DNA from: an uncultured Acidobacteriaceae bacterium
GTDB lineage: Bacteria; Acidobacteriota; Terriglobia; Terriglobales; Acidobacteriaceae
NCBI GenBank assembly: GCA_963840895.1
Contig: CAWJAR010000014.1
Span: 2,306-66,305 of the forward strand
DNA length: 64,000 nucleotides
Direction of reading: 5' to 3'
Within the stretch, counting starts at the first letter, position 1. Every line of letters starts with the position of its first letter. Of the stretch, positions 4,694 through 32,312 are shown in pieces. Under the pieces are notes generated by a model, which made no database searches, was not told the origin of the DNA, and worked only from the letters and a program-made list of their open reading frames with translations. Both the position numbers and the translations under genes were made by a program.

Positions 4694-4916
4694 CTCGCCT
4701 TTGACTCCACTTACGGGGTAAGCTACCATCGCTCTAAGGGGGTAAGCTGATAATGAAGTTATCGAAACGGGCAAGCGCTGAATTTGCAAAAGCAGGGGCA
4801 GAGGGCGGACGGATCGCCGCCAGTCGAATGACTCCGAAACAGCGAACAGAACGGGCACGGAAAGCGGCACTAGCCAGCGCGAGGGCAAGACAAGCGAAAG
4901 CGCGAAAGGGGAAAGC

Positions 4917-6176
4917 ATGAAACCTAAGAAACGAGGCAACAAGCCTTACGTGTTCCGTCGTGGAGATTCTTGGATATTCCGATTCCGCGAAACCATCAAC
5001 GAGGGCGGGGAACTCCAGAGTGTGCAGAGGGCGAGGCCGTTGTGCGCTGTCAATGGTGTGTCCAAGAAATCGGCGCAAAAGATGGCTTTGGCCGAAGTGC
5101 AGAAGCTTGAAAAATCGCGCCCGTCTAAACCGGAACTGGTTGTTACCCTGGGTGATTTTATTACCCAAGTGTATCAACCGTTCGTAGTGGCCAACAAGAG
5201 GGGCGCGACCGCACAGGGTTATTCCGATATGTGGGAAACGCACTGCGCCGGGCGCAAGCACATCAACGGCTCTCTGTTGAAAGATGTACGCACGGCAGAT
5301 GTTTATTCCTGGCTGTGCGAGATCGCCGCCACTGACAAGAACCGCAAGGGCGAACCGCTCAAGAAACGGACCCTGCAACACATCAAGGCTTTCCTGAGTG
5401 GAGTTTTCAAACTCGCCAAGAATCACGGCTACGTCAACGGCGAGAACCCCGTGCGGGATTCAACAGTTCCGCCAGCGCCGGAGGGGGCGGAAACCTATGC
5501 TTACAGCGTTGACGAAATAAAGAACATGCTAGCGGTTCTGCCCGAACCTGCCCGTACGATGGTTGCGACGGCTGCATTTACTGGCTTGCGGCGAAGCGAG
5601 TTGCAGGGGTTGGTCTGGGAGGCATACGGTAACGGGGAATTGCGCGTACTGCAAAGCGTTGTAGAAGGGAATGTGCAGGAATGCAAGACGCGGGCGAGTC
5701 GTGCCGCTGTGCCGTTGCTACCTTCACTTCAGCGAGTGTTAGACGCGCACAGGGAACGCGACAAGGAACCAGTGAAAGGGCCAATATTCAGAACGAGTAT
5801 TGGGACGGCTCTCGATCCGAATAACACCCTAAACAGGCAAATCCTTCCGGTGCTGAATCGCTGCGGTACCTGCAAGCGCCCAGAGGATGAGCACACCGAG
5901 AAAGTAAAGCATGACTACCAGAGGGATGAATCGCTTCCACGGTGGCGAGGTTGGCATGCTTTCCGCAGAGGCTTGGGAACGAATCTGTACAGCTTGGGAG
6001 TCAACGAAAAGACGGTGCAGGCGATCTTGCGGCACGCCGATGTCGGCACTACCATGACGTATTACGTTAAGTCGCTGAGTGAGGATTCTGTGCGTGCAAT
6101 GGCTGCTCTCGATAACGTCTTGTGCTCAACTTGTGCTCTCGATTCAGCCTCCACGGCTGATCTGAAAACGCAATAG
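4917..6176 (+). CDS. tyrosine-type site-specific integrase
   Basis: C-terminal catalytic region: GLRRSEL (Arg), HAFRRGLGT (His-x-x-Arg), ILRHADVGTTMTYY (His...Tyr). The gene ends 30 nt before tRNA-Arg. Confidence 0.9.
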   Translation: MKPKKRGNKPYVFRRGDSWIFRFRETINEGGELQSVQRARPLCAVNGVSKKSAQKMALAEVQKLEKSRPSKPELVVTLGDFITQVYQPFVVANKRGATAQGYSDMWETHCAGRKHINGSLLKDVRTADVYSWLCEIAATDKNRKGEPLKKRTLQHIKAFLSGVFKLAKNHGYVNGENPVRDSTVPPAPEGAETYAYSVDEIKNMLAVLPEPARTMVATAAFTGLRRSELQGLVWEAYGNGELRVLQSVVEGNVQECKTRASRAAVPLLPSLQRVLDAHRERDKEPVKGPIFRTSIGTALDPNNTLNRQILPVLNRCGTCKRPEDEHTEKVKHDYQRDESLPRWRGWHAFRRGLGTNLYSLGVNEKTVQAILRHADVGTTMTYYVKSLSEDSVRAMAALDNVLCSTCALDSASTADLKTQ

Positions 6177-6206
6177 CAGTGTAAAATCATGGAGTTAACA
6201 GCAAGC

Positions 6207-6283
6207 GGCCCCGTAGCTCAGATGGATAGAGCAGCGGTTTCCTAAACCGAAGGTCGGCAGTTCGACTCTGCCCGGGGCCACCA
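6207..6283 (+). tRNA. tRNA-Arg (anticodon CCT), CCA encoded
   Basis: Hand-folded cloverleaf: acceptor GGCCCCG/CGGGGCC, D arm GCTC-AGATGGATA-GAGC, anticodon arm GCGGT-TTCCTAA-ACCGA, variable loop AGGTC, T arm GGCAG-TTCGACT-CTGCC, discriminator A plus CCA. Total 77 nt. Confidence 0.9.
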
Positions 6284-8216: not shown

Positions 8217-10367
8217 GTGGTAGGTATCTATTCCCCTCATAACGTTGTCGATTGGCTGGTTCCCGGCCGGAATCTGTTTCTGGCCATCCACGTTCTTGGA
8301 ATTGCCTGCTTCTTCTATATCGTGGCGATGCGAATGGTTCCGCTGCTTCGCGCCCAACGCGATCCTCGTTTTGATCGACCTCTAGAACGCCTCGGAAGAG
8401 TCCTGAAGTTCTGGCTGGGGCAGTGGAAGCACCCACGATACCGTTTCGCCGGAACGCTCCATATCTTGATCTTTGCTGGTTTCATTCTTCTGGCTGCCCG
8501 GGCTTTTACGGTGCTCATCATCGGAGTCAATGAGAACTTCGTGATGCCCGGTCTTTCTGGACGCGTCGGGCAAATCTACGAGACTCTAACCGACTACGCT
8601 GCCACAGTCGTGTTCATCAGTATGGTTATCGCGGTTGTGCGCCGACTTGTTTTCAGGCCCGCTCGCTACGCAGTGCCCCCTAAGTATGGCAAGGCACACA
8701 CGGCCGACGCGGTTTTCCTGTTGGGGCTGATCGCGCTGTTAATGTTCGCCGACAGCCTGTTTTCGGCTACCCGTTTCGCCGGGCATGCTTATAGTGGTGA
8801 AACTGTCGAGAGTCTTGCCATCTACTCTATGCCGAGGGCGCTGGCGATGCTCGTCGGCTCGACCTCGCTCGCCACGCTGTGGTTTCTGAATGTCACCGCG
8901 TATCTTGTCCATCAGGTCGCCTTCTATTTTCTGCTGTGCTATCGGCCATTCGGTATCCAGTTCCATGTGGAGACGTCACTGTTCAGCATTTATTTCTCCA
9001 AGCTGAACCGCGGAACGATCAAGCCGGTGCGCTGGGACGTCCCGGACGAGCATTTCGATCAGCTGAAATCGTTTGGCGTGAAGACATTCGAAGACTTCAC
9101 CTGGAAGCACATCCTCGATTTCTATTCATGCGCCGATTGCGGCCGGTGTGCGGACAACTGTCCGTCGAATGCCGTCGGTCGCCCACTTGCCCCGCGCTTC
9201 CTCACCATCAAAGCCAGGGACTACGTATTCCGCCACTACCCGGTGTTTGGCAAGGCCAAGCATGGCACGCCGTTGATCGGCAATATCTATTCCGAAGACG
9301 AAATCTGGTCCTGCACGACCTGCGGCGCATGTGAAGAAGAGTGCCCGTTGCTGGTCGAATACATCGACAAGATCGTTGATTTACGGCGCGGCATGATCGA
9401 TGACGGGAACGTTCCGCAATCCCTGCAAAAGCCGCTGAAAGCATTGGAGAGCCGCGGTAATCCATACGGCAAGATGGAGAAGAAAAGGGGCGACTGGGCG
9501 AAGAGTCCGGAGGCTTTGAAACACGGTACCATTCCGGTCTGCGACGGCAAGAACCAGGCCGATACTCTGTACTTCGTCGACAGCATCACCTCCTACGACG
9601 ACCGCATTCAGTCGATCGGGCGCGCTACCGCGCGCATCCTCAGTAACCTTGGGATGAAGTTTGGAATTCTCGGCGCCGCCGAGAAAGACAGCGGTCACGA
9701 AGTCCGCCGATTCGGCGAGGAACTTCTGTTCCAGGCGTTGCGCGATCAAAACACAGACGCCATCAGGGCATCGGGGGTTCAACGAATCGTCACCGCAGAC
9801 CCCCACGCTTACAACGCGCTCAAGCACGACTATAAAGACATTCCGCCCGTCGAGCACATCAGCCAGTTGCTTGCTCGGGAAGTGAGAGCCGGCAATCTCC
9901 ATTTCAACTCGGTGGAACAGTGGTTTGAAGATCGGAGCCGCGTCTACACCTACCACGATCCGTGTTACCTCGGTCGTCACAATCAGGTGTACGACGATCC
10001 GCGCGACGTGCTCGACTCCATCCCAGGATTGCATCGCGTTGAGATGCAGCGTTCGCGCGACCGCTCTTTCTGTTGCGGTGGCGGTGGCCTGGCGCTGTTC
10101 TATGAGCCGAAGGAAGAACAGAGGATGGGAGTGATCCGCGTGCGGATGGCCGCGGAGGCTGGTGCCAATGTCATCGTGACCGCTTGCCCGTTCTGCATGG
10201 TCAACATCGATGACGCCGTTAAGGTCGCGGGCCTGGAAGGAAAAATGTCGGTGATAGACCTGACGGAAGTGGTCGACCAGCACATGGTTCGCGGGTCTTC
10301 CGATAAAACGGCACAAAAACCCGCAGGGAAAACACAGGAATTAGAAACGGTAATTTCAGGAGGTTGA
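8217..10367 (+). CDS. membrane-bound FeS oxidoreductase, HdrD/GlpC-like with NarI-like N-terminal membrane domain (EtfAB:quinone oxidoreductase-like)
   Basis: About 5 N-terminal TM helices containing His. Two ferredoxin-type motifs, CADCGRCADNCP and CTTCGACEEECP. CCG-domain motifs HDPCYLGRH, SFCCGGGG and ACPFCMVNI. Directly coupled to etfB. Confidence 0.8.
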   Translation: MVGIYSPHNVVDWLVPGRNLFLAIHVLGIACFFYIVAMRMVPLLRAQRDPRFDRPLERLGRVLKFWLGQWKHPRYRFAGTLHILIFAGFILLAARAFTVLIIGVNENFVMPGLSGRVGQIYETLTDYAATVVFISMVIAVVRRLVFRPARYAVPPKYGKAHTADAVFLLGLIALLMFADSLFSATRFAGHAYSGETVESLAIYSMPRALAMLVGSTSLATLWFLNVTAYLVHQVAFYFLLCYRPFGIQFHVETSLFSIYFSKLNRGTIKPVRWDVPDEHFDQLKSFGVKTFEDFTWKHILDFYSCADCGRCADNCPSNAVGRPLAPRFLTIKARDYVFRHYPVFGKAKHGTPLIGNIYSEDEIWSCTTCGACEEECPLLVEYIDKIVDLRRGMIDDGNVPQSLQKPLKALESRGNPYGKMEKKRGDWAKSPEALKHGTIPVCDGKNQADTLYFVDSITSYDDRIQSIGRATARILSNLGMKFGILGAAEKDSGHEVRRFGEELLFQALRDQNTDAIRASGVQRIVTADPHAYNALKHDYKDIPPVEHISQLLAREVRAGNLHFNSVEQWFEDRSRVYTYHDPCYLGRHNQVYDDPRDVLDSIPGLHRVEMQRSRDRSFCCGGGGLALFYEPKEEQRMGVIRVRMAAEAGANVIVTACPFCMVNIDDAVKVAGLEGKMSVIDLTEVVDQHMVRGSSDKTAQKPAGKTQELETVISGG

Positions 10368-10369
10368 AC

Positions 10370-11158
10370 GTGGAAATCCTGGTATGCGCCCGAAGAGTGC
10401 CCGACACCTCGGAGAACGAGATCGAACTCAATGCTGCCGGAAACGACATTGAGCGCGATGAACTCGTTTACTCGGTGAATGAGGCAGACAACTACGCCGT
10501 CGAGGAAGCGTTGCAGATTCGCGACCGCGTAGGCGGCAAAGTCACGGTGGTCACCGTCGACAACGAGGAGGGCGAGGAGATCCTGCGCCGGCAGTTGGCC
10601 ATGGGTGCAAATCAAGCCGTTCTGCTCTCCGACGACAGCTTCGAGGGTTCTGACGGAAAAGGTATCGCCACCATCCTCAAGGCCTTTGTAGACAAGGGAC
10701 ACTACGACCTGATCCTGACCGGTGTGCAGGCCGATGACGGCGCGGCCCAAGTCGGAGGAATGCTGGCCGCGATGCTCGACTATCCCTTCGCATCCTTGGT
10801 GAACTTCATCACGGTTCAAGGCGGCAAGCTGAAAGTGAGTCGCGAGATCGAAGGCGGCAACCGCGAGATCAATGAGATCGATCTACCGTGCGTGCTCTCG
10901 ATCCAGACCGGGATCAATGAACCGCGCTATGTCGGAATGCGCGGCATCCGCCAGGTTGCGTCCGTGACGATTCCGACCTTGGGAACGTCAGACCTCGGTG
11001 TTTCTCACGGTACCGTCGGAAAAGAGGCCGCAAAGGCAAAGCGTGTCGATTACTTTGTCTCTGCGCTCAGCAAGGGTGCCGAAATCCTGAAAGGAAGCCG
11101 GGAAGAGAATGCGCAAAAGATTCTTGAGTTGGTAGCTGCGAAGGGAGGCTTAAACTAA
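10370..11158 (+). CDS. etfB: electron transfer flavoprotein beta subunit
   Basis: The N-terminus (V)EILVCARRVPD matches the EtfB signature MKILVCIKQVPD. AGGAGG lies 6 nt upstream of GTG 10370; the track start, TTG 10364, is also possible. Confidence 0.9.
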   Translation: MEILVCARRVPDTSENEIELNAAGNDIERDELVYSVNEADNYAVEEALQIRDRVGGKVTVVTVDNEEGEEILRRQLAMGANQAVLLSDDSFEGSDGKGIATILKAFVDKGHYDLILTGVQADDGAAQVGGMLAAMLDYPFASLVNFITVQGGKLKVSREIEGGNREINEIDLPCVLSIQTGINEPRYVGMRGIRQVASVTIPTLGTSDLGVSHGTVGKEAAKAKRVDYFVSALSKGAEILKGSREENAQKILELVAAKGGLN

Positions 11159-12144
11159 TGGCTCGCATTTTTGCTTACATCCTGCACAAAGGCGGTGTAG
11201 TCGATGACTCGGCTGCCGAACTCATTGCCGCGGCGAAAGCGATTGATCCCGCTTCTTCTCCTACTGCGATTCTCGCTGGCTGGGGTCCGGACTTTGATCT
11301 TTCTTGCAATTCCTTGACTGCCTCCTTCAGCGATGTCTGGAAAGTCGCAAATCAAGCGCTCGCGTACCCGAACGCCGAACTTGTTCGTCAGACGCTAGTA
11401 CGCGTACTACCGCCGGACAGCATCGTGCTCGTCCTTCATGACCATTTCGGAATCGATCTGGCGCCGGGATTGTCGATCAAGCTGAGTGCGGCATTTGTGT
11501 CCGATGTGCTGGCGATCGAAGGCGGCGATGGAAGCTCTTTGAAACTCATCCGCCAGGAGTTCGGCGGACAGTTGAGTGCACACGTCATGTGTGACATTTC
11601 CTCAGGCGCCGTGATCAATATTCGTCCCGGAGCCTTCAAGCCCCAGCCACGCCTCGTGACTTCCGGCAAGGTCATCGACAAGTCCGCCGAAGTAGGCTCG
11701 CTGACAGCACGGCGCCGCTATCTCGAAACAGTTGTCGCCGAAGCCGGCGATGTCGATATCACCAAGCACAGTCTGCTGGTGTCAATCGGCCGCGGCATCC
11801 AGGAAAAGGACAACATTGCACTCGCCGAAGAACTCGCCGAGGTACTCGGCGCAGCTGTCAGTTGTTCGCGGCCAGTGGTCGACGCCAAGTGGATGGAAAA
11901 ATCCCGGCAGGTCGGCTCTTCAGGAAAAACCGTGAAGCCCAAGGTTTACCTTGCCTGCGGCATCAGCGGCGCATTCCAGCATCTGGCCGGCATCAAGGGG
12001 AGTCCGTTTCTGATTGCCATCAACAAGAATCCCAAGGCCCCCATCTTCCAGGTGGCCGACGTTGGAATCGTGGACGACCTCCTCGAGTTCCTCCCCGAAC
12101 TGACCAATAAAGCCAGAGAATTCCGCGGCGTTGCTGCCAAGTGA
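11158..12144 (+). CDS. etfA: electron transfer flavoprotein alpha subunit
   Basis: C-terminal FAD-binding region: [10 protein letters not shown]...[27 protein letters not shown]...[12 protein letters not shown]. The ATG overlaps the etfB stop by 1 nt. Confidence 0.9.
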
Positions 12145-12154
12145 GGATGAGCCG

Positions 12155-13828
12155 ATGCTTGCATATAAAACACTGAAACTAAGCGTGAAGTCACTCAAAG
12201 AATTTGCGAAGAAGCGCTTGCCCGACGAAGTGCTGATCGAACTCGATGAGCGCGACGAGTGTCCGGTCGATATCGTGCGCGACATGTGCAGCCCCGACAA
12301 GTTGGGAATTCAGCTCCTGTTCATCCCTGAAGAATTCGGTGGCATGGGGGGCGGCACATTCGATGTCTACTGCATTTGCGAGGAGATGGCACGCATCGAT
12401 CTCGGTGTCGCTACCTCCGTATTGGCTACGTTCCTGGGGAGCGATCCGATTACCGTTGGTGCGACACACGAGCAGAAGAAGACATGGCTCAGCCGGATTG
12501 CCGACGAAGGCTTGCTCTTCGCCTACGGCGCCACCGAACCGGAAGCTGGCAGCGACCTGGGCGCGCTTCGCACCACGGCCGACCGCGTCATGCAAGACGG
12601 GCGCATCGTCGGTTACAAGATCAACGGCAACAAACAGTGGATTAGCAATGGTGGAATCGCAGGTGCCTACACGGTTTTGGCCAGCACGCCAGCCGGGCCG
12701 AGTTGGTTTGTCGTGGAAAAAGATGCCAAGGGATTTACTCACGACGAGCCCGAAGACAAGCACGGCATTCGCCTGAGCAACACAGCGGCACTCGCGTTCA
12801 ACGAGGTCTACGTTGATGCTGACCGCCTTATCGGTGGCGTTGAAGGTCAGGGCTTGAATCAGGCGCAGGCGGTATTCGGATATACGCGTCTGATGGTCGC
12901 GGCTTTTGGATTGGGCGCCGGTTGGGCCGCCCTCGATCGCGCCATCCCTTATTCCACGAAGCGCATTCAGGCCGGAGCACCGCTTTCGGAGAAGCAAGGC
13001 TACACGCACAAGCTGATCGTACCTAACGTCGCCCGTCTTGAAGCCGCACGCGCCTATATCGAACAGACAGCGGAACGCATCGATGTCGGCGAAGGCAGTC
13101 TCAACACGGAAGGCGCGATCGCGAAGTACATGGCAACCGAAGCAGGGAACCAGGCTGCCGAGGCCAGTATTCAGGCTCTTGGCGGATACGGCTACACGCA
13201 CGAATATCTGGTTGAGAAGATTAGTCGCGACGTGCGCATCACCACGATCTACGAGGGCACCTCTGAAATCATGGAGATGACCATAAGCCGAGATCGCTGG
13301 CAGCTTCACCTGAAGACTCGCGGCCAGCACTATCACGACAAAGCCGTCGAGCTGGAGGCCTTGTATGCGCAGCATCCGAACGTGGGCGCGAACATGGCTG
13401 CACTAGCCCATCACGCTCTGGCCGAATTGATGGAGAAAGCGCGGGTCGCACGCCTGACACGATATCAGCATATTCTCCTGCGCCTGGGAGAATGGATTGC
13501 CTACGCCGAGTGCGCTGGCACCTTGGCGCGCCGCGCCGCGCTTCATGCCGAGAACACGCTGAATGAAAAAGCGAATCGTCGCTTTGATGCAACGGCGCTC
13601 GCTGCCGTGAGCCGCATTTTCGCTCGCGATGCCGCACTCAAGGTCGCGGAAGAAGGTTTGCGCTGGATCTGCGGGTCCGGTGCAATCGCGGACTCTGAGA
13701 TGCCCGCTTTCGAAACAAGTTTGCAATTGCCCGCCATTCATCGTGGCCAGGCGGGTTTGATTTTTGACATGGATTTCGTAGCCGACGTCCTCTACGCCCG
13801 CGCAGCCAAGCCTGCGCTCGCCGCATAA
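12155..13828 (+). CDS. acyl-CoA dehydrogenase with ~170-aa C-terminal extension
   Basis: ACAD motifs [20 protein letters not shown] and the catalytic-base region [14 protein letters not shown] lies 7 nt upstream of ATG 12155. A helical extension follows the canonical end of the fold. Confidence 0.9.
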
Positions 13829-13886
13829 GTAAAGACGCCTGACTAATTGACGTGCAACCTGCCATCGGTTGCACAGGAGCGTCCCA

Positions 13887-16800
13887 ATGCAAATGGAAGA
13901 CACAGCCTATCGTGCGATTGCGATCGTAGGCGCGGGAGCCGTGCTGCCCGACGCCCCCAACGTCAACGCTTTCTGGGAGAACGTGAAGCGTGGCCGATAC
14001 AGCATCACCGACGTTTCTCCGGAGCGTTGGGATCCCGCATTTTATTACGATGCAGATCCCAGGGCCCCGGACAAGACGTACTCCAAGATTGGTGGATGGG
14101 TGCGCCAGTTCACGTGGGATCCGATGAAGTGGCACATGCCACTTCCACCCCGTGTCACCGATGCGATGGACCAAGCGCAGAAGTGGGCTATCGCCGCCAC
14201 TCGTGAGGCCCTCGAAGACTACGGCTACCCCAAGCGGCCGCTGGATCCCGATCGCGTCGCGGTCATCCTCGGCAATGCCATGGCGGGTGAGAAACATTAT
14301 CAGACGGCCTTGCGGGTGAACTTCCCTGAGTACGCGCATGAACTCGCTGAAAGCGAGAGTTTCGCGACGCTGCCCGAAGCCCTCCGTCGCGACATAACGC
14401 GGGAGCTGCGCGAACGCATTGGCAAACGCCTACCCGAAGTTACTGAAGACAGCATGCCCGGCGAGCTTGCCAACTGCATCGCCGGACGCATCGCCAATCT
14501 CTACAACTTCCACGGCCCGAACTTTATTTGTGACGCGGCTTGCGCCTCTGCCATGGCGGCCATGACCGCTGCCGCCGAAGGGCTGGTTGCGAACGATTTC
14601 GATGCTGTCATCACCGGCGGCATTGACCGCAACATGGGCGCTCAGACTTTCGTGAAGTTCTGCAAGATCGGCGCGCTCTCGGCGACCGGCACACGTCCCT
14701 ATGCCGAGGGTGCGGATGGCTTCGTGATGGGCGAGGGTTCTGCGATCTTCGTAATGAAGAGGTTGGCCGATGCTGAGCGCGATGGCGACAATATCTACGC
14801 CGTGTTGCGCGGAATCGGTGCATCGAGTGATGGGAAAGGCAAGGGGATTACCGCACCCAACCCGATCGGGCAGAAGTTCTGTCTGGAGCGTGCGTGGCAA
14901 AATGCGGGGCTATCGCCCGCTACCGCTACGCTCATCGAAGGGCACGGTACTTCTACTCGCGTTGGCGACGTGGTTGAAGCGCAGTGCATCGCGGACCTGC
15001 TCAAGAGTCAAAACCTTCCGGTTCACTCGGTCGCATTGGGCTCAGTCAAATCGAACATCGGACATTTGAAAGGCGCAGCGGGTGCAGCCGGAATGCTGAA
15101 GATCGCTCTGGCCCTCCGCGACAAAGTGATGCCACCCAGCGTGCACTGCGAACATCCCAGCCCAGATATCGACTTTGCCCACTCCCCTGTTTACGTCAAC
15201 ACCACACTGCAGCCGTGGACAGTTCCGGCCGACATTCCGCGACGTGCCGGCGTGAGCGCCTTCGGCTTCGGAGGCACGAACTTTCATATCGTGCTTGAAG
15301 AGCACATTCCCCACAGGCTGACCGGAAACGGGAAGCGGTCAATCGCTGTCAACCTCCCGCACACTGCGATCCCAGAGGTAGTTATGAATGTAAAAGCAAC
15401 CCCCTTCTCCCCTTCAGCCTCAACCGCATCGCCTGTCTGCAAAACTCCTCTGCGAGGTGCGTTGTTGATTGGCGCTGCCTCCGATTCCGAGCTTGTCGAA
15501 CGCTTGTCCGCGGTTATGAAGGACGCACAAGCTGGACGCATCCCGGCGTCCGCCGCTCCAGCCGAAGCCGACCTGCATGCGCCGCAGCGTCTTGCAATTG
15601 ATTATTCCGACGCCGCTGAACTGGCAGACAAGTCCGCCAAGGCTTTAAAGGCCTTCGCCGCAAATCAGTCCGTTGTGTGGAAGGCATTACGCGCGCAGGG
15701 AATCTTCCGCGGCCAAGGTGACGCGCCGAAAGTCGCATTCCTCTATACCGGACAGGGCTCGCAGTACGTGAACATGTTGCGTCCGCTCTACAACGCAGAG
15801 CCGATCGTCGCGGAGACATTTGCCGAAGCGAATCGCGTGATGACTCCTCTGCTGGGTAAGCCTCTGACTGATTTTGTATTTGTCGACCAGACCGATCCCG
15901 CTGCTGTGTCGAAAGCCGATGACGACCTTCGGCAGACAGCGATCACGCAGCCCGCCGTGCTGGCTATCGATCTCGCGCTAACCCGGTTGTTGGCCGCATA
16001 TGGCATTCAGCCAGACATGACGATGGGGCACAGCCTCGGCGAATACGGTGCACTGGTTGCGTCGGGCGCACTGCCGTTCGAGGATGCTCTTGAAGCGGTT
16101 AGCGCCCGCGGTCGTGGCATGACCCGGGTTGCGGTCGCTGACACCGGCAAGATGGCTGCCGTATTCGCGCCTCTCACGGAGGTGGAACGAATCCTGAAGA
16201 GCATCACCGGCTATGTAGTCATCGCCAATATCAACAGCGAGCACCAGGCCGTGATTGGAGGTGCGAGTGATGCGGTTGCCGAAGCCATGCAGGTTCTGCA
16301 GAAAGCGGGCTATGAAGCCTCGGAACTGCCCGTAAGCCATGCTTTCCATACCTCCATCGTCGCTCCAGCCAGCGAACCACTCCGTCAGGAACTTGCCCGA
16401 CTGCGTGTGGAATCGCCGCACCTTCCCGTGGTGGCCAATGTGAATGGAGAGTTCTATCCTACAGGGCCCGATGTCGTACCCCAGATACTGGACCTTCTCG
16501 CCAAGCAGGTAGCCTCTCCCGTGCAATTTGTGAAGGGCCTGCGCACTCTCTACGAGGCGGGCGCTCGTATTTTCGTAGAAGTTGGCCCGAAGAAAGCGCT
16601 ACAGGGGTTCGCCGAAGATGTTCTCGGCGGCCGCGGCGATGTCCTCGCACTCTTCACCAACCATCCCAAGTTCGGCGATATCGCCTCGTTCAATCAGGCG
16701 CTGTGTGGCCTCTACGCGGCAGGACTCGGCCGCGGCATCGCTGCCATCTCGCCAGAGAGGCCAGCGGAGGTCGCATCGTTGTCGCCCAGTGCAAGACCAT

Positions 16801-19800
16801 CTCCCGCCTCGGAAGAGCCATCTGTCGGATGGCGCAGCGCTTCTGGCGCTGCGATAAAGCCCAACCCCTCCCCCATGGCTTCAGCCGCTGCGCGCCGAAA
16901 CGATCCCGATCACTACGCCGAACTTGGCCATTTCTTCGCCGAGGTTCTTGAGCGCGCCTGGCAGATTCAGGGCGACCCTGCTCCGGCAAATCTCCCGGTT
17001 GTCATCACCGGTGCCGCTCTTGGCCTTCCCGGGACCGATCATGTCTTCGACGATGCCAACCTCGCCCGCCTCCTGCGTGGCGATCAATTCATCGACCTCA
17101 TCCCCACTCGCCTGCGCAAGGCAATGCTCGACAAGCACATCACCCGCCTGGTAAAGAGCGACAACGGCGGACCAACTTTCGAGACCATCAGCAACATCTC
17201 CGACGTCATTAAATTAGCCGGCCGCGGAGGCGCGTTCGATCTCCAGCAGGAATTCGGCATTTCTGCCGACCGTCGTGCCGCTCTTGATCGCGCTACACAA
17301 CTCGCCATCGCGGTTGGAATCGACGCCCTGCGCGACGCCGGCATCCCGCTGGTCATGCGCTACAAAACTACGACAAAAGGCACTCAGTTGCAGGATCGCT
17401 GGGGGCTTCCTGACGCGTTGCGAGACGACACTGGGGTGATCTTCGCTTCCGCATTCCCCGGGTGCGATTCCTTCGCCGATGAGATGGGGCGTTATTACAA
17501 CGACCACTCCCGCCGTGAGCAACTCGGCTTGTTGGAGAGCCTGCTGGCTCGGGCTGCGAAAGGGAATGGCGACTCAGTCCTCGAACAGGAAATCGAGCGC
17601 CGCACAGAGGACTTGCGGGATGCAATCGAGAAAGAGCCGTACGTCTTCGATCGCCGCTTCCTGCTAAGAACGCTGTCAATGGGGCACTCGCAGTTTGCTG
17701 AACTTATTGGCGCGCGCGGTCCCAACACACAAATCAATTCAGCCTGCGCCAGCACTACGCAAGCCGTTGCCCTGGCGCAAGACTGGATCAACGCCGGCCG
17801 TTGTCGCCGCGTGATTATCGTCTCGGCAGATGACGTGACTTCAGATCATTCCATCGAATGGTTCGGCGCAGGGTTTCTTGCCAGCGGTGCGGCCGCAACC
17901 GACGAAGTGGTCGAAGAGGCTGCCACTCCGTTCGATCGTCGGCGCCATGGCCTGATCGTCGGCATGGGCGCTGCCGGCCTCGTAGTCGAGAGCACCGACG
18001 CCGCCCGAGAGCGCGGCATTCAACCGATCTGCGAAGTGCTGAGTACGGTCACTGCCAACAGTGCCTTCCACGGCACCCGCCTCGACGTACAACACATCGG
18101 TCAGATGATGGAGAACCTTATTGGGCAGGCCGAGGCAAAGCACGGCATCTCACGCCAGCAAATTGCGCCTCATGCGGTATTCGTTTCTCACGAGACCTAC
18201 ACGCCCGCGCGCGGCGGCAGCGCCTCCGCCGAAATCCACGCGTTACGCCACGTATTCGGCGCCGCAGCCGATCAGATCGTCATTGCCAACACCAAGGGAC
18301 AAACCGGCCACGCCATGGGCACGGGGATCGAAGATGTTCTCGCTGTGAAGGCCTTGGAAACTGGCTTGGTACCACCCGTCGCTAACTTTAAAGAGGTAGA
18401 CCCGGAGTTGGGCACGCTGAACCTGTCAAAGGGCGGCGGATACCCAATCGAATACGCGATTCGATTGGGCGCGGGATTCGGCTCACAGATCAGCATGTCG
18501 TTGCTTCGCTGGAACGCCCCGAAAGATGGAGGTCACCGCCGTCCCAATGATCTCGGCTACGCCTACCGCATCGTCGACGAGGACTGCTGGAAATCCTGGC
18601 TGAGGCAAATTGCAGGCTATCCCAAGGCGGATCTGGAAGTGGTCCACCGCACATTGCGGGTGCGAGATCAAAAAACAGGGGCACGCTTGGTGGAAGTCGC
18701 CAAGACGCCTCCGGAAGCGGCCGCCGTTCCAGTCCCACCGACACCAGCGCCGGCGGAGTCGCCGCGCACTGAACCGTCACACCCGATGGTTGAAGCAAGA
18801 GTCGAAACGAAAACAGCAACTCTCGTGCCGACATCGCCCCCAAAGCCAGTCGTCCAAGGCGATTCGGTCAAGGATCGCGTTTTGGCTCTGGTCGCTGAAA
18901 AGACAGGCTATCCGGTCGACATGCTCGATCTGGATCTCGACCTCGAAGCCGACTTAGGCATCGACACCGTAAAGCAAGCCGAAGTAATGGCGACGATTCG
19001 TCAAGCCTACGGTATCGTGCGCGACGACACCATCAGGTTGCGCGATTTCCCCACGCTCGCTCGCGTCATCCAGTTCGTGCATGACCGTGCACCACAAGTT
19101 CGCGCCGCGCTGCCCTCAGCAGCTTCGCCTGTATCAGAACCTGCGCCCAAAGCGGAAGGGAAGGCCGAGCACAAGATCAAAGTCGCTCCGCCAGTCGCCG
19201 CAGTGGCTCTCGCACCCATCAAAGTTGCAGAAACAGAGACTGATCTCGTGAAAGACCGCATTCTTGCGCTCATGGTTGAGAAGACCGGGTACCCACAAGA
19301 CATGCTGGACCTCGATCTCGATCTCGAGGCTGATCTCGGTGTCGATACCGTGAAGCAAGCAGAAATGTTTGCGGCCATCCGCCAAATCTACAACATCCCT
19401 CGCGATGAAAACCGTAAGCTCCGCGATTACCCCACGCTGGCGCACGTGATTCGCTTCGTGTACGAGAAGCGTCCCGACTTGGCTGGTACGTCTGCTCTAA
19501 CAGCTCCAACCCACGTCTCGCCCCGGCCAACGCCCGCCGAGGCAGTTGCTCCATCTCTAACGCCGATCGCAGTCCACGCCAGTTCCGATGACCCCATTCA
19601 AAAGAAAGTCCTGCAGATCGTAGCGCAGAAGACCGGCTATCCCGAAGACATGTTGGATCTGGATCTCGACCTTGAGGCCGATCTTGGCGTCGATACGGTG
19701 AAGCAGGCAGAGATGTTTGCCGCTGTCCGCACCGCCTACAACATTCCGCGCGACGAGAATATGAAGCTGCGCGATTTCCCGACGTTGGCTCACGTCATCA

Positions 19801-22454
19801 AGTTCGCACACGAACGCTCTGCCCTTGTAACCTCCGCTTCGGCGTCTCCCGCCAAGGAGAAATCGAAGCCAACGCCAACGCTCTCTGAGCCCACCGAACG
19901 CCGAGTTCTTAATAGCTTCGAAGCTGCAGATCGTGTCCCGCGGCGCATCCCAGTAACGACCTTGCGTCCTCCGCTCACGTTTTGCAAGCCATCAGGAGTG
20001 AAACTCGATCGCGCCAGCCGCGTCGTTATCATGCCCGATAAAGGTGGCGTGGCCGAAGCACTGACGCAACGCCTGCGCGTGTTAGGCGTCGAGGTACTCT
20101 GCATCGAAGCTGCTCTCGATGCCGATACCCTTACACGCATTCTCAAAGACTGGATCACCTCCGGTGCAATCGCCGGAATCTACTGGCTCCCCGCGCTCGA
20201 CAATGAAGGCGACCTCCGCACTCTCGAGTCTGCCAGTTGGCATGAAGCCGTTCGCCTGCGGGTGAAATCGCTGTACGTTGCAATGCGCACACTGTATGAG
20301 CAGATCGGCCGGCCAGGCACGTTTCTCGTCACGGGAACGCGGCTTGGCGGACACCACGGGTACGACGATGCAGGCGCAACATTCCCGCTCGGAGGCGCCG
20401 TCACCGGTTTCGCTAAAACCTACAAGCGCGAGCGGCCGGATACACTCGTCAAAGCAGTAGACTTCGAGCCCAGTCGCAAAGCCTCAGAAATCGCTGACCT
20501 CCTGGTTGACGAGACGCTGCGCGATCCCAGTGCCGTCGAGATCGGATACACCAGCGACCAGCGCTGGACCGTCGGTCTAGAAGAGCAATCCGCCAGCGAC
20601 GGAAACCCAGGCATGGTTCTCGACAAGAGCAGCGTTTTCGTTGTGACGGGGGCGGCGGGCAGCATCGTCTCAGCGATCACCGCCGACCTGGCCGCTGCAT
20701 CTGGCGGCACTTTCTACCTGCTCGACTTGGTACCCAAGCCAGATCCGGACAATCCCGATCTCAAACGTTTTGTCACCGATAAGGAAAACCTGAAGCGCGA
20801 TCTGTTCGCCCGCATACAGACCCGAGGCGAACGCGCCACGCCGGCGCTCGTCGAGAAAGAACTTGCTGCCCTCGAAAGGGCGCAGGCAGCGCAAGCGGCA
20901 ATTGATGCCGTTCGCGCCGCTGGCGGCACTCCACATTATTTCAGCCTCAACCTTGCCGACGCTGAAGCCGTCACGAGAGTGATCGATCAGGTTCGTCTGG
21001 GCAGCGGGCGCATCGACGTCCTGCTGCATGCCGCAGGTATTGAAAGAAGCCACTTCCTTCCCGACAAAGATTCCCGGGAATTCGATCTGGTTTTCGACGT
21101 GAAGGCTGACGGCTTCTTTAACTTGCTGCACGCTATCGGCGACATGCCTCTCGGCGCTACGGTGGCGTTCAGTTCCATTGCAGGCCGCTTCGGCAACGCG
21201 GGTCAGACCGACTACAGCGCCGCGAACGATCTGCTCTGCAAGATCACTTCGAGCTTCCGCACCACTCGTCCCGCCACGCGCGGCATCGTGATCGACTGGA
21301 CGGCGTGGGGCGGGATCGGCATGGCGACCCGCGGCTCTATACCGAAGATGATGGAACTCGCCGGTATCGACATGCTTCCACCAGATGCTGGTATTCCCCT
21401 GATTCGACGCGAACTGACCACGGGCGCCACGCGCGGCGAGATCGTCATTGCCCAGCGCCTCGGGGTGTTGCTGAATGAATGGGACACAACCGGGGAACTC
21501 GATGCTGCAGCCGCGGGGGCTGCCAAGAAGTCCTTGCCAGCAAGCGGGCCGATGGTCGGCAAGATTGTATCCGCCAGCATCTCCGGCCGCTTTACGGTCG
21601 AAACAACTCTTGATCCCCAAGTTCAACCGTTCCTGCACGATCACCAGATTGAGGGCACCCCGGTGCTGCCGGGGGTCATGGGCATCGAGGCCTTCGCGGA
21701 AGCAGCTACCTGTTTGCTGCCGGGGTGGAGCGTTGCGTCCATCGAGGACGTGAACTTTCTGGCGCCATTCAAGTTCTACCGCACCGAACCACGCGAGATC
21801 CAAGTGGAAACCAGGATCCGTCCGCAAGGTGATGAATTGGTGGCGGATTGCCGCCTGATCGGCCGACGCATTCTTCCGAACCAGAGCGAACCTCAAAGCA
21901 CCATCCACTTCACCGGGCGGGTGCGGCTCTCGAAACAGCCGACACAAACGCCGGCTCGAATGCTAGGCAAGGTGGAAGGCCATATTATCCAATCTGCCGA
22001 CATCTACCGAATCTACTTCCACGGCCCGGCTTACCGGGTTGTGGAGAAAGCGTGGTGGGACGGCAAGCGAGTCATCGGATTGATGGCGGCCCATCTGCCT
22101 CCCAATCACCACCCAAGTGAACTGGCTACGTGCGTGGAGCCGCGGCTAATCGAGCTCTGCTTCCAGACTGCTGGCATCTGGGAGCTGGGTGTGCAAGGTC
22201 GCATGGGCCTGCCGCAGCACCTGCGCGAAGTCTCTCTTTTCCGGATGCAGGAGGACGCGGACGGACCGTTGTATGCCGTGCTCACTCCCGACGCTGCTCG
22301 GGGAAGCTTCGACGTCGAAGTCCTGGATGCAAAAGGGAACTGCTACTTGCGCGTCACGGGATATCAGACCGTAGCCCTTCCGAGTGGCGCCGACGCGAAA
22401 TCTCTGAGAACGCTGCATGAGGTCATGTTTGGCGAAGCCGCCCTTGTCGCATGA
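13887..22454 (+). CDS. PfaA-like iterative type I polyketide/fatty-acid megasynthase, KS-AT-KS-ACP-ACP-ACP-KR-DH
   Basis: Domain motifs are listed in the sub-features below. AGGAG lies 7 nt before ATG 13887; the track start, TTG 13869, is in frame. No ER, TE, R or CLF domain was recognised. Confidence 0.9.
   Translation: [2855 protein letters not shown]
13908..15302 (+). other. KS1 domain (PfaA-type ketosynthase)
   Basis: [10 protein letters not shown] (Cys225), [31 protein letters not shown]. A charged insert (aa ~141-194) precedes the catalytic Cys. Confidence 0.85.
15726..16613 (+). other. malonyl-CoA:ACP acyltransferase domain
   Basis: [20 protein letters not shown] (Ser722), SHAFHT. 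Confidence 0.85.
16992..18512 (+). other. KS2 domain (second ketosynthase, intact Cys-His-His)
   Basis: [12 protein letters not shown] (Cys1293, codon 17745-17747), SHETYTP (His1441), [13 protein letters not shown] (His1481). Confidence 0.75.
18858..19088 (+). other. carrier (ACP-like) domain 1, Thr at the Ser position
   Basis: [21 protein letters not shown]; the Thr1700 codon is ACC at 18966-18968. Confidence 0.8.
19236..19472 (+). other. carrier (ACP-like) domain 2, Thr at the Ser position
   Basis: [21 protein letters not shown]; the Thr1827 codon is ACC at 19347-19349. Confidence 0.8.
19587..19814 (+). other. carrier (ACP-like) domain 3, Thr at the Ser position
   Basis: [21 protein letters not shown]; the Thr1943 codon is ACG at 19695-19697. 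Confidence 0.8.
19956..21488 (+). other. ketoreductase domain (structural + catalytic subdomains)
   Basis: Rossmann motif [12 protein letters not shown]; catalytic region [19 protein letters not shown]. Confidence 0.8.
21546..22403 (+). other. PKS-type dehydratase (double hot-dog) domain
   Basis: HxxxGxxxxP motif in [14 protein letters not shown]. The C-terminal position matches PfaA. Confidence 0.75.
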
Positions 22455-28122: not shown

Positions 28123-28860
28123 ATGGAGCTTTACTGGCTGGAACAAACCGAATCTGACGTGCCCGCCGACGATCGTTGGCTGAGTCCGGAGGAATCGATT
28201 TGCCTTCACTCCATGCGCTTTGCCAAACGACGCAATGACTGGCGTCTTGGCCGCTGGACTGCGAAGCGAGCTCTCGTCGCCCACCTTCGGTCGCCCATCG
28301 ACATCCGTGCACTCGTGGACGTGGAAATCCACGCCGCAGAGTCTGGCGCTCCAGAAGTATTCCTCTATGGCGAGCCTGCCGACGTCGCAATTTCTCTCAG
28401 TCACCGCGCTGGCACCGCCTTATGCACGGTGGGGCCGCCAGTCAGCAACTTCGGCTGCGACCTGGAACGAATAGAACCGCGCAGCGAAGCCTTTGTAGCC
28501 GACTACTTCACAGCGGCCGAGCAAACCCTCATTGAGCGAACGAATCTGCCAGGCCGGTCACTGCTACTCGCATTGCTCTGGAGCGCCAAAGAGAGCGCTC
28601 TCAAGGCCCTGCGCGTCGGACTTCGACTTGATACCCGGAGCATCAGTGTTATCCCGGGCGCCGGTTGGTCACACGTCTGCACTGACCCAGAGGAGTGGCG
28701 CCCCTTGCAACTCCAATACGCACCCGCAGGCTGCTTCGAAGGTTGGTGGAGAACTCAACACGACCTCGTGCGAACCGTAGTCGGCGATCCCCCGTTATGT
28801 TCTCCCCTTCACGCAATCCAGAGCCACCCTCTTGCATTAACCGTGCCCTCTCCTTTCTAG
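28123..28860 (+). CDS. Sfp-type 4'-phosphopantetheinyl transferase
   Basis: FGCDLERIE (G-x-D) and LLWSAKESALKAL (W-x-x-KE-x-x-x-K). I prefer ATG 28123 with an upstream GAGGGG; the track start at 28015 would overlap the carboxylase. Confidence 0.85.
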   Translation: MELYWLEQTESDVPADDRWLSPEESICLHSMRFAKRRNDWRLGRWTAKRALVAHLRSPIDIRALVDVEIHAAESGAPEVFLYGEPADVAISLSHRAGTALCTVGPPVSNFGCDLERIEPRSEAFVADYFTAAEQTLIERTNLPGRSLLLALLWSAKESALKALRVGLRLDTRSISVIPGAGWSHVCTDPEEWRPLQLQYAPAGCFEGWWRTQHDLVRTVVGDPPLCSPLHAIQSHPLALTVPSPF

Positions 28861-28922: not shown

Positions 28923-31900
28923 CTATTGTCCCTTGCCGGTCAGCGTTAGAACTTGTGGGCTGCCGACACTATTGTCGAATACCTTGTAGGTCGCGTTCTC
29001 AGTACCAACCTTGCTGGGGAAGAAACTTACCGTGATCTGGCAAGTCGCTCCCGGCTTCAGAGGATTGGCCGAGTTGTTCCCACAAGGCGGGTTATCGCCA
29101 TAGTTGCTGCTGAAGTCCGCGCTATTGGTTCCGAATATCTCACCACCGATAAAGTAGACATTCGTCGTCCCCACGTTGGTGATCGTAACCGTTGACGAAA
29201 CGGTTTGACCTCGCGTAACCGTCCCAAAATTCACCGTGCTGGGCGCGAACTTAATGCCGGTTCCATACCCTTGCAGAGCTACTGTCTGTGGGCTGGTCAC
29301 GTCACTATCATTTACATTGAGGGTTCCCATCGCAAAGCCAACCTTGGTGGGTTTGAAGTTGACGTTGATCACGCAGGTTCCGTTGGCAGCGATGACCAAA
29401 CTGTTGGTGCAGGTTGTGGTGCTCGCGCTACCAAACGTTCCCGTCAAAGTGATCGCCGGATTCCCCAGCGTGATCGATACACCCGTGTTGTTGGTGAGAG
29501 TTATTTTTGTATTCGCACTGGTCACGCCTACGGCCGTAGTTGCGAAGCTCACTGAGGCTGGATTGAGAGATACATTACTGATTCCCGTCCCGGTTAGCCC
29601 GATGAGCTGCGGTGACGAGGGATCGTTGTCATTGATTACCACTGAGCCCCGTTTCGCGCCTGTGGATTTCGGCCCGAAGGTCACGCCGATACTGCAACTT
29701 GCTCCCCCTGCCAGCGTGGAACCGGAAGCCGGGCAAGTGTTGGTCGCGATCGTGTAGTCCGTGGTATTGGTCGACGTGATCGCTCCCATCGTGATCGCAG
29801 TGGTTCCGCTGTTCTTTACGGTTACGGTCTTAGCCGCGCTCGTGGTTTTCACAAGTTGGTTGCCAAAGCTCAGCGGAGCGCCCGCCAGCGAAATGGCGCT
29901 TCCCAGACCTGTCAAGCTGACCGCGTTAGTCTGGCTGAAGTAGCCGTTCGAGTTGATCGTGACGTTCCCATTCAGGCTTCCTGAAGCTGTCGGCACAAAG
30001 TACACGTACATTGTGCAAACGGTTCCGTTCGCCATCGTCGACGGACAATTATCCGCCTCGCTGAAGTTAGCGCTGGTCGAAATGTTGCTGATGCTGACTG
30101 GACCGTAGGCACTCACAATAAGCGTCTCCGGTGAACTGGTGGACCCGACCGAAGTAAGTCCAAATGACAGGCTGCCGGTGCTGGTGCCCACCGCGGCAAA
30201 TGCCGAGATGCTGCGCACCCGGAAGTTGTTGTAATCCGATACCAGAACGTTGCCCGAAGGATCGAGCGCGATTCCAGTTGGTTCGTACAATGCCGCGGCT
30301 GTTGCCAAGCCGCCGTCTCCGTTGTAGCTGGCTACGCCGGTGCCCGCGATTGTCGTCATAATCCCGTTGGGACTGACCCACCGCACACGGTTAGCGTAGT
30401 CTCCGATGAAGAGGTTGTCGTTGGCATCGACGGCGATTCCTTGTGGGTAGGTAATGCCATTCGCGATCGCCAGTCCATCGCCCGTGAAGGCGCAGTTGCC
30501 GGTTCCCGCCACGGTGTTGATTACGTTTGTGGCTACATTGATCTCGCGTACCCGGCAGTTGTTGGTATCTGCGATAAAGACGTTGCCTGCGGGATCAACA
30601 GCGAGCGACGTCGGTCCGTACAGTAGCGCGCTGGTTGCTGGTCCACCGTCTCCGGAATACCCTTGCAGACCGCCAATACCGGCGATGGTTGTGATCACGC
30701 CACCGGAAACTTTACGGACAACATCCTCAACATAATCCGTAAGGTAAACATTGCCCTTGCTGTCCACGGCTATTCCGTAGGGGTTATAGAGTTCTGCACT
30801 CGTGGCAGAGCCTCCATCGCCCGTGTATCCGCACCGTGGGCTATTGTTGACCAACAAACCTGCGAACGTTGAGATCGTTCCGCCCGCGGTCACCTTGCGT
30901 ACCAGGCAATTGCTAGTATCGGCGATGTAGACGTTCCCCACGCTGTCCTTGGCAACTCCGTAGTTGTAGGTAAGCTCCGCACTGGTCGCGGCCCCTCCAT
31001 CTCCGGAGTACCCGTAGGTTCCGTTTCCAGCGAAGAAGTTCACCAATCCGCTGGACTTCACATCTTCGCGAACCATGAAATTGTGGCTGTCGTTGACGTA
31101 GACGTTCCCGGCGGAATCGTCAAAAATCCCGTAAGGATAGTTCAGCTCCACGCCCGTCGCGGGTGCGCCGCTGACCAGCGTCTCAAGATTGTAGGAGTGG
31201 TTGCCGGCCGCCAGGTTCAGGTTTCCACCGGCGGTGAAGCTGTCAATGACGTAGTTGTCGTTGTTCGCGATGTAGATTAGCCCGCTACTGGTCTCAGCAA
31301 CGTCTAACGGATAATAGAGTTGGGCGCTCGTAGCCGAGCCGCCCTCGCCGCACGTACCGGCGCAAGCAACGCCGTTACCGGCAACCGTGTTCATATTTCC
31401 ACCGACTGTGAACTGGCGGACTCGCTGGTTGTAGTAATCAGCAAACGTCACCGTGGTGCCAAGCACTGCCAGTCCAAATACCTGGTTCATCGACGCACTG
31501 GTGGCGGCTGCTCCATCCCCTGAAAAACCGCAGGTGTGGTTCCCCCCGACCGTCAGGATCTTGTTGGAGGTCTTAATCACTTCTCGGATCACGCAGTTCG
31601 AAGCGTCCGCAATAAACAGATTTGACGAACTGTCGGTCGCTAGTCCGGAAGGAGTGTACAACTCCGCGTTAAGCGCTGGGCCGCTATCGCCCGAATAACC
31701 GCAGGTGTGATTTCCAGCATAGGTCGAAATGGTGTTCGTCCCAAGAACCAGCTTGCGCACCACGCAGTTCGCCGAATCACCGATGAAAAGGTCTCCGGAG
31801 GCATCCAATGCCAAGCCCTGCGGAAAGTAAATCTGGGCGGCCGTTCCTTTCCCGCCATCACCCGAATATCCGCACGAACCCGCAATCCCTGCAATGGTCG

Positions 31901-32312
31901 TGATCGTCTTGGCGGTGTCGACTTTTCGCACCACGCAATTGCCCTGGTCCGCGATGTACACGATTCCAGTACCATCGACTGTCACTGCGAACGGATGGTA
32001 CAGGCTCGCAATTCCCGCGCCGCCTGTTACGCCGTCTCCCGCATATCCCTGTGCACCGCTGCCGGCGACCACGGAGATGGTACCGCTGGCGTTCACTTTG
32101 AATACGCGATTCTGGTTATAGGCAGCGATGTAAAAATTGCCGGAGGTGTCCACGGCAACGCCGTAGGGGTTGTAAAGGTTGGCGTTGGTGGCGGGAATGC
32201 CGTTCGGACCGCCACCAATTGCGGTGGTAATCACATCTTGCGCGACTGCGGGAAGACTCACCAGCAACGCGGCCAGCAGAAGTAGAGTCGACGAAGTGAA
32301 GCGGCGCATCAT
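28923..32312 (-). CDS. secreted NHL-repeat beta-propeller protein with C-terminal Ig-like (choice-of-anchor-D-like) repeats
   Basis: Signal peptide MMRRFTSSTLLLLAALLVSLPAVAQD. More than 10 repeats of the G(Y/F)SGDGG.AT.A.L..P.G(L/V)A.D..GN(L/V)(Y/F)IAD type. Then about 5 Ig-like modules (LSFG...VGSTS...T(V/L)TN.G). Confidence 0.8.
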   Translation of the reverse strand: MMRRFTSSTLLLLAALLVSLPAVAQDVITTAIGGGPNGIPATNANLYNPYGVAVDTSGNFYIAAYNQNRVFKVNASGTISVVAGSGAQGYAGDGVTGGAGIASLYHPFAVTVDGTGIVYIADQGNCVVRKVDTAKTITTIAGIAGSCGYSGDGGKGTAAQIYFPQGLALDASGDLFIGDSANCVVRKLVLGTNTISTYAGNHTCGYSGDSGPALNAELYTPSGLATDSSSNLFIADASNCVIREVIKTSNKILTVGGNHTCGFSGDGAAATSASMNQVFGLAVLGTTVTFADYYNQRVRQFTVGGNMNTVAGNGVACAGTCGEGGSATSAQLYYPLDVAETSSGLIYIANNDNYVIDSFTAGGNLNLAAGNHSYNLETLVSGAPATGVELNYPYGIFDDSAGNVYVNDSHNFMVREDVKSSGLVNFFAGNGTYGYSGDGGAATSAELTYNYGVAKDSVGNVYIADTSNCLVRKVTAGGTISTFAGLLVNNSPRCGYTGDGGSATSAELYNPYGIAVDSKGNVYLTDYVEDVVRKVSGGVITTIAGIGGLQGYSGDGGPATSALLYGPTSLAVDPAGNVFIADTNNCRVREINVATNVINTVAGTGNCAFTGDGLAIANGITYPQGIAVDANDNLFIGDYANRVRWVSPNGIMTTIAGTGVASYNGDGGLATAAALYEPTGIALDPSGNVLVSDYNNFRVRSISAFAAVGTSTGSLSFGLTSVGSTSSPETLIVSAYGPVSISNISTSANFSEADNCPSTMANGTVCTMYVYFVPTASGSLNGNVTINSNGYFSQTNAVSLTGLGSAISLAGAPLSFGNQLVKTTSAAKTVTVKNSGTTAITMGAITSTNTTDYTIATNTCPASGSTLAGGASCSIGVTFGPKSTGAKRGSVVINDNDPSSPQLIGLTGTGISNVSLNPASVSFATTAVGVTSANTKITLTNNTGVSITLGNPAITLTGTFGSASTTTCTNSLVIAANGTCVINVNFKPTKVGFAMGTLNVNDSDVTSPQTVALQGYGTGIKFAPSTVNFGTVTRGQTVSSTVTITNVGTTNVYFIGGEIFGTNSADFSSNYGDNPPCGNNSANPLKPGATCQITVSFFPSKVGTENATYKVFDNSVGSPQVLTLTGKGQ

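Follow-up and report, generated by a model that had tools for sequence, protein, structure and literature searches.

The three tandem carrier domains of a PfaA-like iterative type I synthase, encoded in a 64,000-nucleotide stretch of contig CAWJAR010000014.1 from an uncultured Acidobacteriaceae bacterium (the whole stretch is referred to below as the window), carry threonine at the position where acyl carrier proteins (ACPs) carry the serine that receives 4'-phosphopantetheine. We infer that these domains are probably working carriers, phosphopantetheinylated on Thr by a dedicated 4'-phosphopantetheinyl transferase (PPTase) encoded in the same cluster. The features on which the argument depends are the following; domains were delimited with a hidden Markov model (HMM) of the carrier family, and residues are numbered in the open reading frame (ORF) that begins at the TTG at 13869.

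13869..22454, + strand: PfaA-like iterative type I synthase, 2861 aa, with the order ketosynthase (KS), acyltransferase (AT), second KS-like domain ('CLF'), three Thr carriers, ketoreductase (KR), dehydratase (DH)
18858..19097, + strand: carrier domain 1, ACP fold, DLGIDTVKQAE, site Thr1700, family HMM score 119.7 bits
18966-18968, + strand: Thr codon ACC of domain 1, at the canonical phosphopantetheine-attachment position
19239..19478, + strand: carrier domain 2, DLGVDTVKQAE, site Thr1827, from translation and family HMM
19347-19349, + strand: Thr codon ACC of domain 2
19587..19826, + strand: carrier domain 3, DLGVDTVKQAE, site Thr1943, from translation and family HMM
19695-19697, + strand: Thr codon ACG of domain 3
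28123..28860, + strand: Sfp-type PPTase, 245 aa, with GCDLE and WSAKESALK, the proposed Thr-modifying enzyme

Translation of 18858-19814 on the + strand yields three repeats, each about 80 aa long, that are joined by Ala/Pro-rich linkers and contain the motifs LEADLGIDTVKQAE, LEADLGVDTVKQAE and LEADLGVDTVKQAE; the Pfam model PP-binding (PF00550) matched three stretches at 70.3 bits (cut-off 20.8), and no additional carrier domain was detected when the family HMM was run over the whole window. A sequence-only reading of this DNA had placed the carrier region at 18858-19814, of which the start stands and the end does not, as the family HMM carries the third domain 12 nt farther, to 19826. The same reading had described Thr in all three motifs (ACC, ACC, ACG) and no Ser in or near any of them. 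Both observations were reproduced by the translation and the codon positions: the cores of domains 2 and 3 hold no Ser at all, and the single Ser of domain 1 (in GDSVK) is remote from the motif. At the DNA level the three copies are 81% identical per column and show numerous synonymous differences, indicating neither a recent duplication nor a read error. The catalytic motifs of the synthase are likewise intact, including KS Cys224 (DAACAS) with both His motifs, the AT motif GHSLG (Ser722), the KR motif YSAAN (Tyr2449) and the DH motif HxxxGxxxxP (His2592). The earlier exclusion of a sequencing error or a recently duplicated dead domain is therefore upheld.

Structure prediction places the Thr where the acceptor Ser would be expected. 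The AlphaFold2 model of domain 2 (mean predicted local distance difference test score, pLDDT, of 89.4) has helix II beginning at residue 38, which is the Thr, and nearly all of the top 50 Foldseek matches of this model in the PDB were ACPs, the best of them with template modelling (TM) scores of 0.75-0.85. The Thr also aligned with the modified Ser of the solved structures of PigH, CurA and Rickettsia ACPs. By the alignment and the predicted model, then, the Thr occupies the phosphopantetheine-attachment position at the N-terminus of helix II.

Conservation of this residue among relatives is complete in every set of orthologues examined, and Thr stands there, as in the three window domains, in place of the acceptor Ser of (D/E)xGxDS(L/I). 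At least 568 confirmed stretches came from a scan that covered one genome per species, and the locus counts given here and below cover the best 80. These 80 loci derive mostly from Acidobacteriota (Acidobacteriaceae, Korobacteraceae, Ca. Sulfotelmatobacter, Bryobacterales and Solibacteraceae), together with metagenome-assembled genomes (MAGs) labelled Ca. Amarolinea, Dormibacterota, Binatia and Verrucomicrobiia. All 324 of their carrier domains contain DLG[VI]DTVKQAE, in arrays of 3 to 7 copies, and no Ser carrier was found outside the Thr arrays in the 80 syntenic loci. The Thr is encoded by all four codons (ACC 160, ACG 120, ACT 29 and ACA 15), from any of which Ser is a single nucleotide change away. 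The complete absence of Ser, combined with synonymous codon turnover, shows that Thr itself is under selection.

The same result was obtained from two protein searches. With the whole synthase as the query, which leaves the ranking of orthologues dominated by the catalytic domains, Thr was present in 466 of 466 carrier domains of 120 full-length orthologues; the closest of these was 93% identical, the named ones belong to Ca. Sulfotelmatobacter sp., and the synthase as a whole is conserved at 74-93% between species. With the tri-carrier fragment as the query, 1782 matches were returned, and the best 120 contained 378 Thr and 0 Ser among carrier-motif matches. Many of these 120 are stand-alone multi-carrier proteins belonging to a split form of the synthase, in which three synthase genes encode KS-AT-KS', the carriers and KR-DH in the order ACAD / KS-AT-KS' / carriers / KR-DH / PPTase (ACAD being the acyl-CoA-dehydrogenase-family protein). 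The 11-residue motif DLG[VI]DTVKQAE is nearly invariant despite an overall identity of about 60%. Scoring Thr against Ser in aligned homologues was the check that the sequence-only reading had proposed, and its outcome is uniform (324/324, 466/466 and 378/378 motif matches); the pattern that would have pointed to inactivation, with Ser in the orthologues and Thr in this strain alone, was not seen. Since the orthologues uniformly carry Thr, a family-wide variant, which had been raised as an under-noticed possibility, is established.

Relatives with Ser at the same site place the Thr class in an evolutionary context. When 1.84 billion sequences, each representing a 50% identity cluster, were searched exhaustively with HMMER, 5821 proteins reached E<=1e-3 and 787 reached E<=1e-30. 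Among the best 150 representatives, 125 belonged to the Thr class, with motifs of the form DLG[IV]DT[VI]KQ[AV]E, and the other 25 to the Ser class, with either DLGIDSIKRVEIL (classic PfaA) or DLGIDSIKKAQLF. When the site column was masked the two classes still separated, with only 1 of 256 non-redundant domains lying closest to a member of the other class. This sole exception is the first domain of P0175 (L081:10001-11605), a mixed array in a Type-R-like cluster in which one Ser domain (DLGVDSIKQAEAF) is followed by two Thr domains; the P0175 cluster is apparently broken up by frameshifts, and the quality of its assembly is uncertain.

Additional Ser relatives were sought by scanning metagenome DNA with a degenerate pattern for DLG[VI]D-Ser-VKQAE; a T-to-S protein query was rejected for this purpose, as scores summed over several domains would have masked the signal. 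The scan, covering TCN Ser codons and not AGY, found only ten stretches, all of them Ser arrays (L084-L093). These sister arrays have the core LDLEADLGIDSVKQAEI[LF] (…LDLEADLGIDSVKQAE…; LDLEADLGID-S-VKQAE) within AT-ACPn-KR-DH proteins, and a PPTase gene homologous to the Thr-associated PPTases lies immediately downstream. They share with the Thr class a near-identical carrier core, the domain order and the downstream homologous PPTase, but differ from it in having Ser at the site, in their rarity and in lacking a KS in the same polypeptide; such arrays would serve as natural controls. Together, the sister arrays and the mixed array indicate that the site residue is equivalent in position and in context in the two classes. 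Combined with the separation at the masked site, they lead to the conclusion, from these sequence comparisons, that the Thr class is a coherent, old derivative of the Ser-type carriers of polyunsaturated fatty acid (PUFA) synthases.

The PPTase encoded in the cluster has the features of a canonical member of its superfamily. Pfam ACPS (PF01648) scored 72 bits against a cut-off of 25, and the motifs ISLSH, GCDLE and WSAKESALK are present, with GxDxE and (W/F)xxKE(S/A)xxK conserved in 64 stand-alone relatives. The start at 28123 is backed by a 245-aa homologue with 99% identity; an alternative start at 28015 was set aside in its favour, the longer ORF being without an exact database record. As a single sequence searched against the PDB, the protein gave only a weak match to a fungal fatty acid synthase (FAS) PPT domain, and its profile matched AcpS, Sfp, EntD and fungal FAS PPT domains; its sequence resemblance to solved PPTases is very low, with E about 1e-3 even for the profile. 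The AlphaFold2 model (pLDDT 90) shows the two-lobed Sfp-type fold, and its Foldseek matches were AASDHPPT, Sfp, PptT/PptAb and PcpS (TM 0.63-0.73, E 1e-12 to 1e-7). The window enzyme has in common with Sfp, AASDHPPT, PptT and PcpS both the fold and the catalytic motifs GxDxE and WxxKE(S/A)xxK. To our knowledge, Ser is the acceptor in every carrier protein that has been studied and all characterised Sfp-type PPTases modify Ser, whereas the clade of the window PPTase is tied to Thr carriers.

This tie is seen in gene order and in gene fusion. The PPTase gene is syntenic in 68 of the 80 loci, most of the remainder being cut by contig ends, and the only candidate substrates predicted for it within the cluster carry Thr. 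Most tellingly, nine distantly related Thr-class synthases that are mutually <=50% identical (P0161, P0162, P0190, P0197, P0210, P0223, P0232, P0253 and P0256) have a PPTase domain fused at the C-terminus, and their carriers are of the Thr type only. Each of the nine fused domains retains (W/F)xxKE(A/S)xxK, whereas GxDxE ends in the acidic E in six of them and in A, D and P once each. Such a fusion is a Rosetta-stone-type link between the PPTase and the Thr carriers. A comparable architecture is known from the enediyne PKSE (SgcE/CalE8), a self-phosphopantetheinylating, iterative, PUFA-synthase-related enzyme with the order KS-AT-ACP-KR-DH-PPTase and a single Ser-type ACP; the nine fused Thr-class synthases parallel it in their C-terminal Sfp-type PPTase domain, and unlike in PKSE the window PPTase is a separate gene. 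One of the nine, P0162, comes from a MAG labelled as a Thermoplasmatota archaeon, a label that suggests possible transfer or mis-binning.

From the synteny, the fusions, the intact motifs, the Sfp-type fold and the lack of any other carrier domain in the window, modification of Thr by the adjacent PPTase, which the sequence-only reading had listed among its options, is the best-supported mechanism. In the proposed scheme, the three domains would act as the acyl carriers of a PUFA-synthase-like iterative megasynthase, with Thr as the acceptor at the N-terminus of helix II. The cluster PPTase (28123-28860) would transfer phosphopantetheine from CoA to the Thr hydroxyl, giving O-phosphopantetheinyl-threonine, and the holo-domains would then carry malonyl and acyl thioesters among KS, AT, KR, DH and probably the neighbouring ACAD/ETF module, in the manner of the PfaA tandem ACPs. 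Retention of Thr might insulate the carriers from housekeeping AcpS/AcpH or provide a more stable phosphodiester, although both ideas are speculation.

Several points weigh against this scheme. The S36T variant of E. coli ACP cannot be modified (PMC3340395), and function is lost in the S38T variant of spinach ACP-I as cited in PMC9310384; both agree with the description of PPTases as Ser-modifying in the sequence-only reading. Enzymes of the ACAD family normally use CoA thioesters, so a CoA-based route is conceivable. Comparison of 73 Thr-associated PPTases with 5 Ser-sister PPTases revealed no PPTase feature that clearly explains acceptance of Thr. Residue D170 (28630-28632, within GLRLDTR) is D or N in 68 of the 73 Thr-associated enzymes and G in all five Ser-sister enzymes, which makes it a weak, phylogenetically confounded candidate determinant of Thr specificity because the Ser-sister PPTases are few and related.

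The same substitution data are what an alternative explanation would draw upon, namely that the Thr domains are unmodified scaffolds or spacers in a synthase working on CoA thioesters or on a borrowed Ser-type ACP, encoded elsewhere, that the cluster PPTase serves. The adjoining ACAD/ETF genes, which are of CoA-dependent families, also fit this explanation. It is nevertheless disfavoured and judged unlikely, as the most conserved part of the domains (DLG[VI]DTVKQAE) is the loop contacted by PPTases and partner enzymes, a degree of conservation that a scaffold would not need, and as the number of carrier copies ranges from 3 to 7, in the way that it varies in PfaA. Moreover, the PPTase is fused to synthases with carriers of the Thr type only, and Ser carriers that could be borrowed are absent from the window and, beyond the Thr arrays, from the 80 loci. 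Were the Thr instead to bear another group, such as a direct O-acyl (oxoester), a phosphate or a different CoA-derived group, the conserved partner would not be expected to be a canonical PPTase of the Sfp type whose CoA/Mg motifs are intact, and decarboxylative condensation by KS in all known relatives uses thioesters on a long flexible arm; this idea has no specific support and seems very improbable.

Attachment of phosphopantetheine to a different residue, either another Thr or a Ser in a linker, is given even less credence. Two further Thr residues, in KTGYP and YPTL, are about 98% conserved in Thr-class domains and could be proposed as acceptors, but they are also kept in Ser-type ACPs (TGYP in the S-class consensus; DYPTL in CurA), and being common to these they are taken as structural residues. 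The linkers are Ala/Pro-rich and unconserved, and no conserved Ser exists anywhere in the Thr-class domains, with a maximum of 19% at any position and 23% of the domains wholly without Ser (n=662). Finally, carriers inactivated or decaying in this strain, or a sequencing or assembly artefact, are refuted by the comparative data: no supporting evidence was found, the same Thr occurs in hundreds of independent assemblies from several phyla, and the synonymous codon turnover, intact frames and intact catalytic motifs exclude strain-specific inactivation. Phosphopantetheinylation of the motif Thr by the cluster PPTase is therefore retained as the preferred reading.

Extending this reading beyond the window, we lean slightly towards the view that a large, ancient PUFA-synthase-like clade uses O-(4'-phosphopantetheinyl)-threonine together with a co-evolved clade of Sfp-type PPTases, the pair being orthogonal to the Ser-specific AcpS/AcpH. 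Such a clade would span hundreds of soil Acidobacteriota species as well as Chloroflexota, Dormibacterota, Binatia and Verrucomicrobiota MAGs.

Comparison with known systems shows that the synthase is PfaA-like without being a PfaA. The tandem ACPs of PfaA (DLGIDSIKRVEIL) and the window carriers have the same fold, the same placement between AT and KR and the same Ala/Pro linkers, and the features KTGYP…(E)xDLGID-x-[IV]K…E are in register; tandem arrays contain 3-7 copies in the Thr class and 4-9 in PfaA. Unlike the PfaA ACPs, the window carriers have Thr in place of the phosphopantetheinyl-Ser in every domain, followed by VKQAE where PfaA has IKRVE. NCBIfam PfaA (TIGR02813) is the best model match of the synthase, at 945 bits and thus below the cut-off of 1010.1. 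The synthase has the PfaA order KS-AT-tandem ACP-KR(-DH) with an extra KS-like domain between AT and the carriers. No pfaB, pfaC or pfaD partner is present in the 64-kb window, and this absence, combined with the score below the cut-off, is the basis for calling the synthase PfaA-like. The window synthase further differs from PfaA systems in being adjoined by an ACAD/ETF/FeS module and a single-chain acetyl-CoA carboxylase (ACC).

A closer counterpart, whose product is uncharacterised, is the 'Type R secondary lipid synthase' described for Koribacter, Solibacter, Elusimicrobium and Roseiflexus (Shulse & Allen 2011, PMC3098273), in which one pfaA homologue with the order KS-MAT-CLF-ACP(3-6)-KR precedes a PPTase gene. 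In Koribacter versatilis the pfaA and pfaE homologues flank an ACC gene, a placement identical to that in the window cluster, and the P1b' motif hShxH reported for Type R PPTases (PMC3098273) fits ISLSH of the window PPTase. By domain order and gene order, the window cluster, which comes from an acidobacterium near Ca. Sulfotelmatobacter, is classed as a Type R secondary lipid synthase. That paper does not contain the word 'threonine' and is also silent on the ACAD/ETF/FeS genes conserved here (PMC3098273). No report of Thr phosphopantetheinylation or of the motif DLG[VI]DTVKQAE was found in the full-text literature searched, which yielded the negative S-to-T precedents and the Type R description alone, subscription-only papers being outside the search.

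The acceptor Ser is treated as defining and invariant for acyl, peptidyl and aryl carriers, and its presence is used to call domains 'active', as when ACPs were checked for 'the conserved Ser' in PMC13291983. The window carriers have the sequence and fold characteristics of carrier domains except for this Ser, and are coupled to their own PPTase clade. If the Thr is modified, PPTase chemistry reaches a secondary alcohol, and annotation rules that call Thr carriers dead misjudge thousands of proteins. In that case labelling and pathway engineering would also gain an orthogonal pair of carrier and PPTase that already exists in nature, and more notice would be due to a lipid pathway of soil Acidobacteriota, abundant yet uncharacterised, which comprises the synthase, the single-chain ACC and the ACAD/ETF/FeS genes.

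The remaining members of the cluster lie upstream of the synthase, where they are co-oriented with it, and between the synthase and the PPTase:

8217-10367, + strand: FeS/CCG oxidoreductase
10364-11158, + strand: EtfB
11158-12144, + strand: EtfA
12131-13828, + strand: acyl-CoA-dehydrogenase-family protein (ACAD), 565 aa
22500..28091, + strand: single-chain ACC, 1863 aa, BC-BCCP-ACC_central-CT

The gene order FeS-EtfB-EtfA-ACAD-synthase-ACC-PPTase is syntenic across loci, with ACAD accompanying the synthase in 75 of the 80, Etf and FeS in 66 and ACC in 64. The ACC, whose single-polypeptide form is a eukaryote-like arrangement, presumably supplies malonyl-CoA to the synthase. The synthase has no enoyl reductase (ER) domain, so that the upstream ACAD/Etf/FeS module may act as the enoyl reductase; this block may therefore provide either the missing enoyl reduction, in a Bcd/Etf-like manner, or a desaturating step.

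Within the synthase, the second KS-like domain (16990-18520) keeps an active-site-like Cys in NSACAS (C1293, codon 17745-17747) and also has the His-containing motifs SHETYT and KGQTGH. This domain, named 'CLF' (chain-length factor) in the Type R description, may instead be a second active ketosynthase. A different architecture was observed in P0189 (L083:10001-29321), a 4019-aa Thr-class megasynthase with the order ER-KS-KS-AT-KS-carrier(T)x6-KR-DH. Its N-terminal ER domain is PfaD-like (NMO), and genes for a biotin-protein ligase, a single-chain ACC and BioY follow; the locus resembles a type I fatty-acid synthase unit that is complete in itself.

Outside the cluster, a D5-primase-like gene (3093-4475) and a tyrosine integrase gene (4917-6176) abut the only tRNA of the window, tRNA-Arg(CCT) at 6207-6283, and the region 3093-6283 is probably an integrated mobile element. 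On the other side, 28923-32312 on the - strand encodes a 1129-aa NHL-repeat / Ig-like protein (ASH, Cep192_D4, DUF1573) that is convergent with the cluster and probably unrelated to it.

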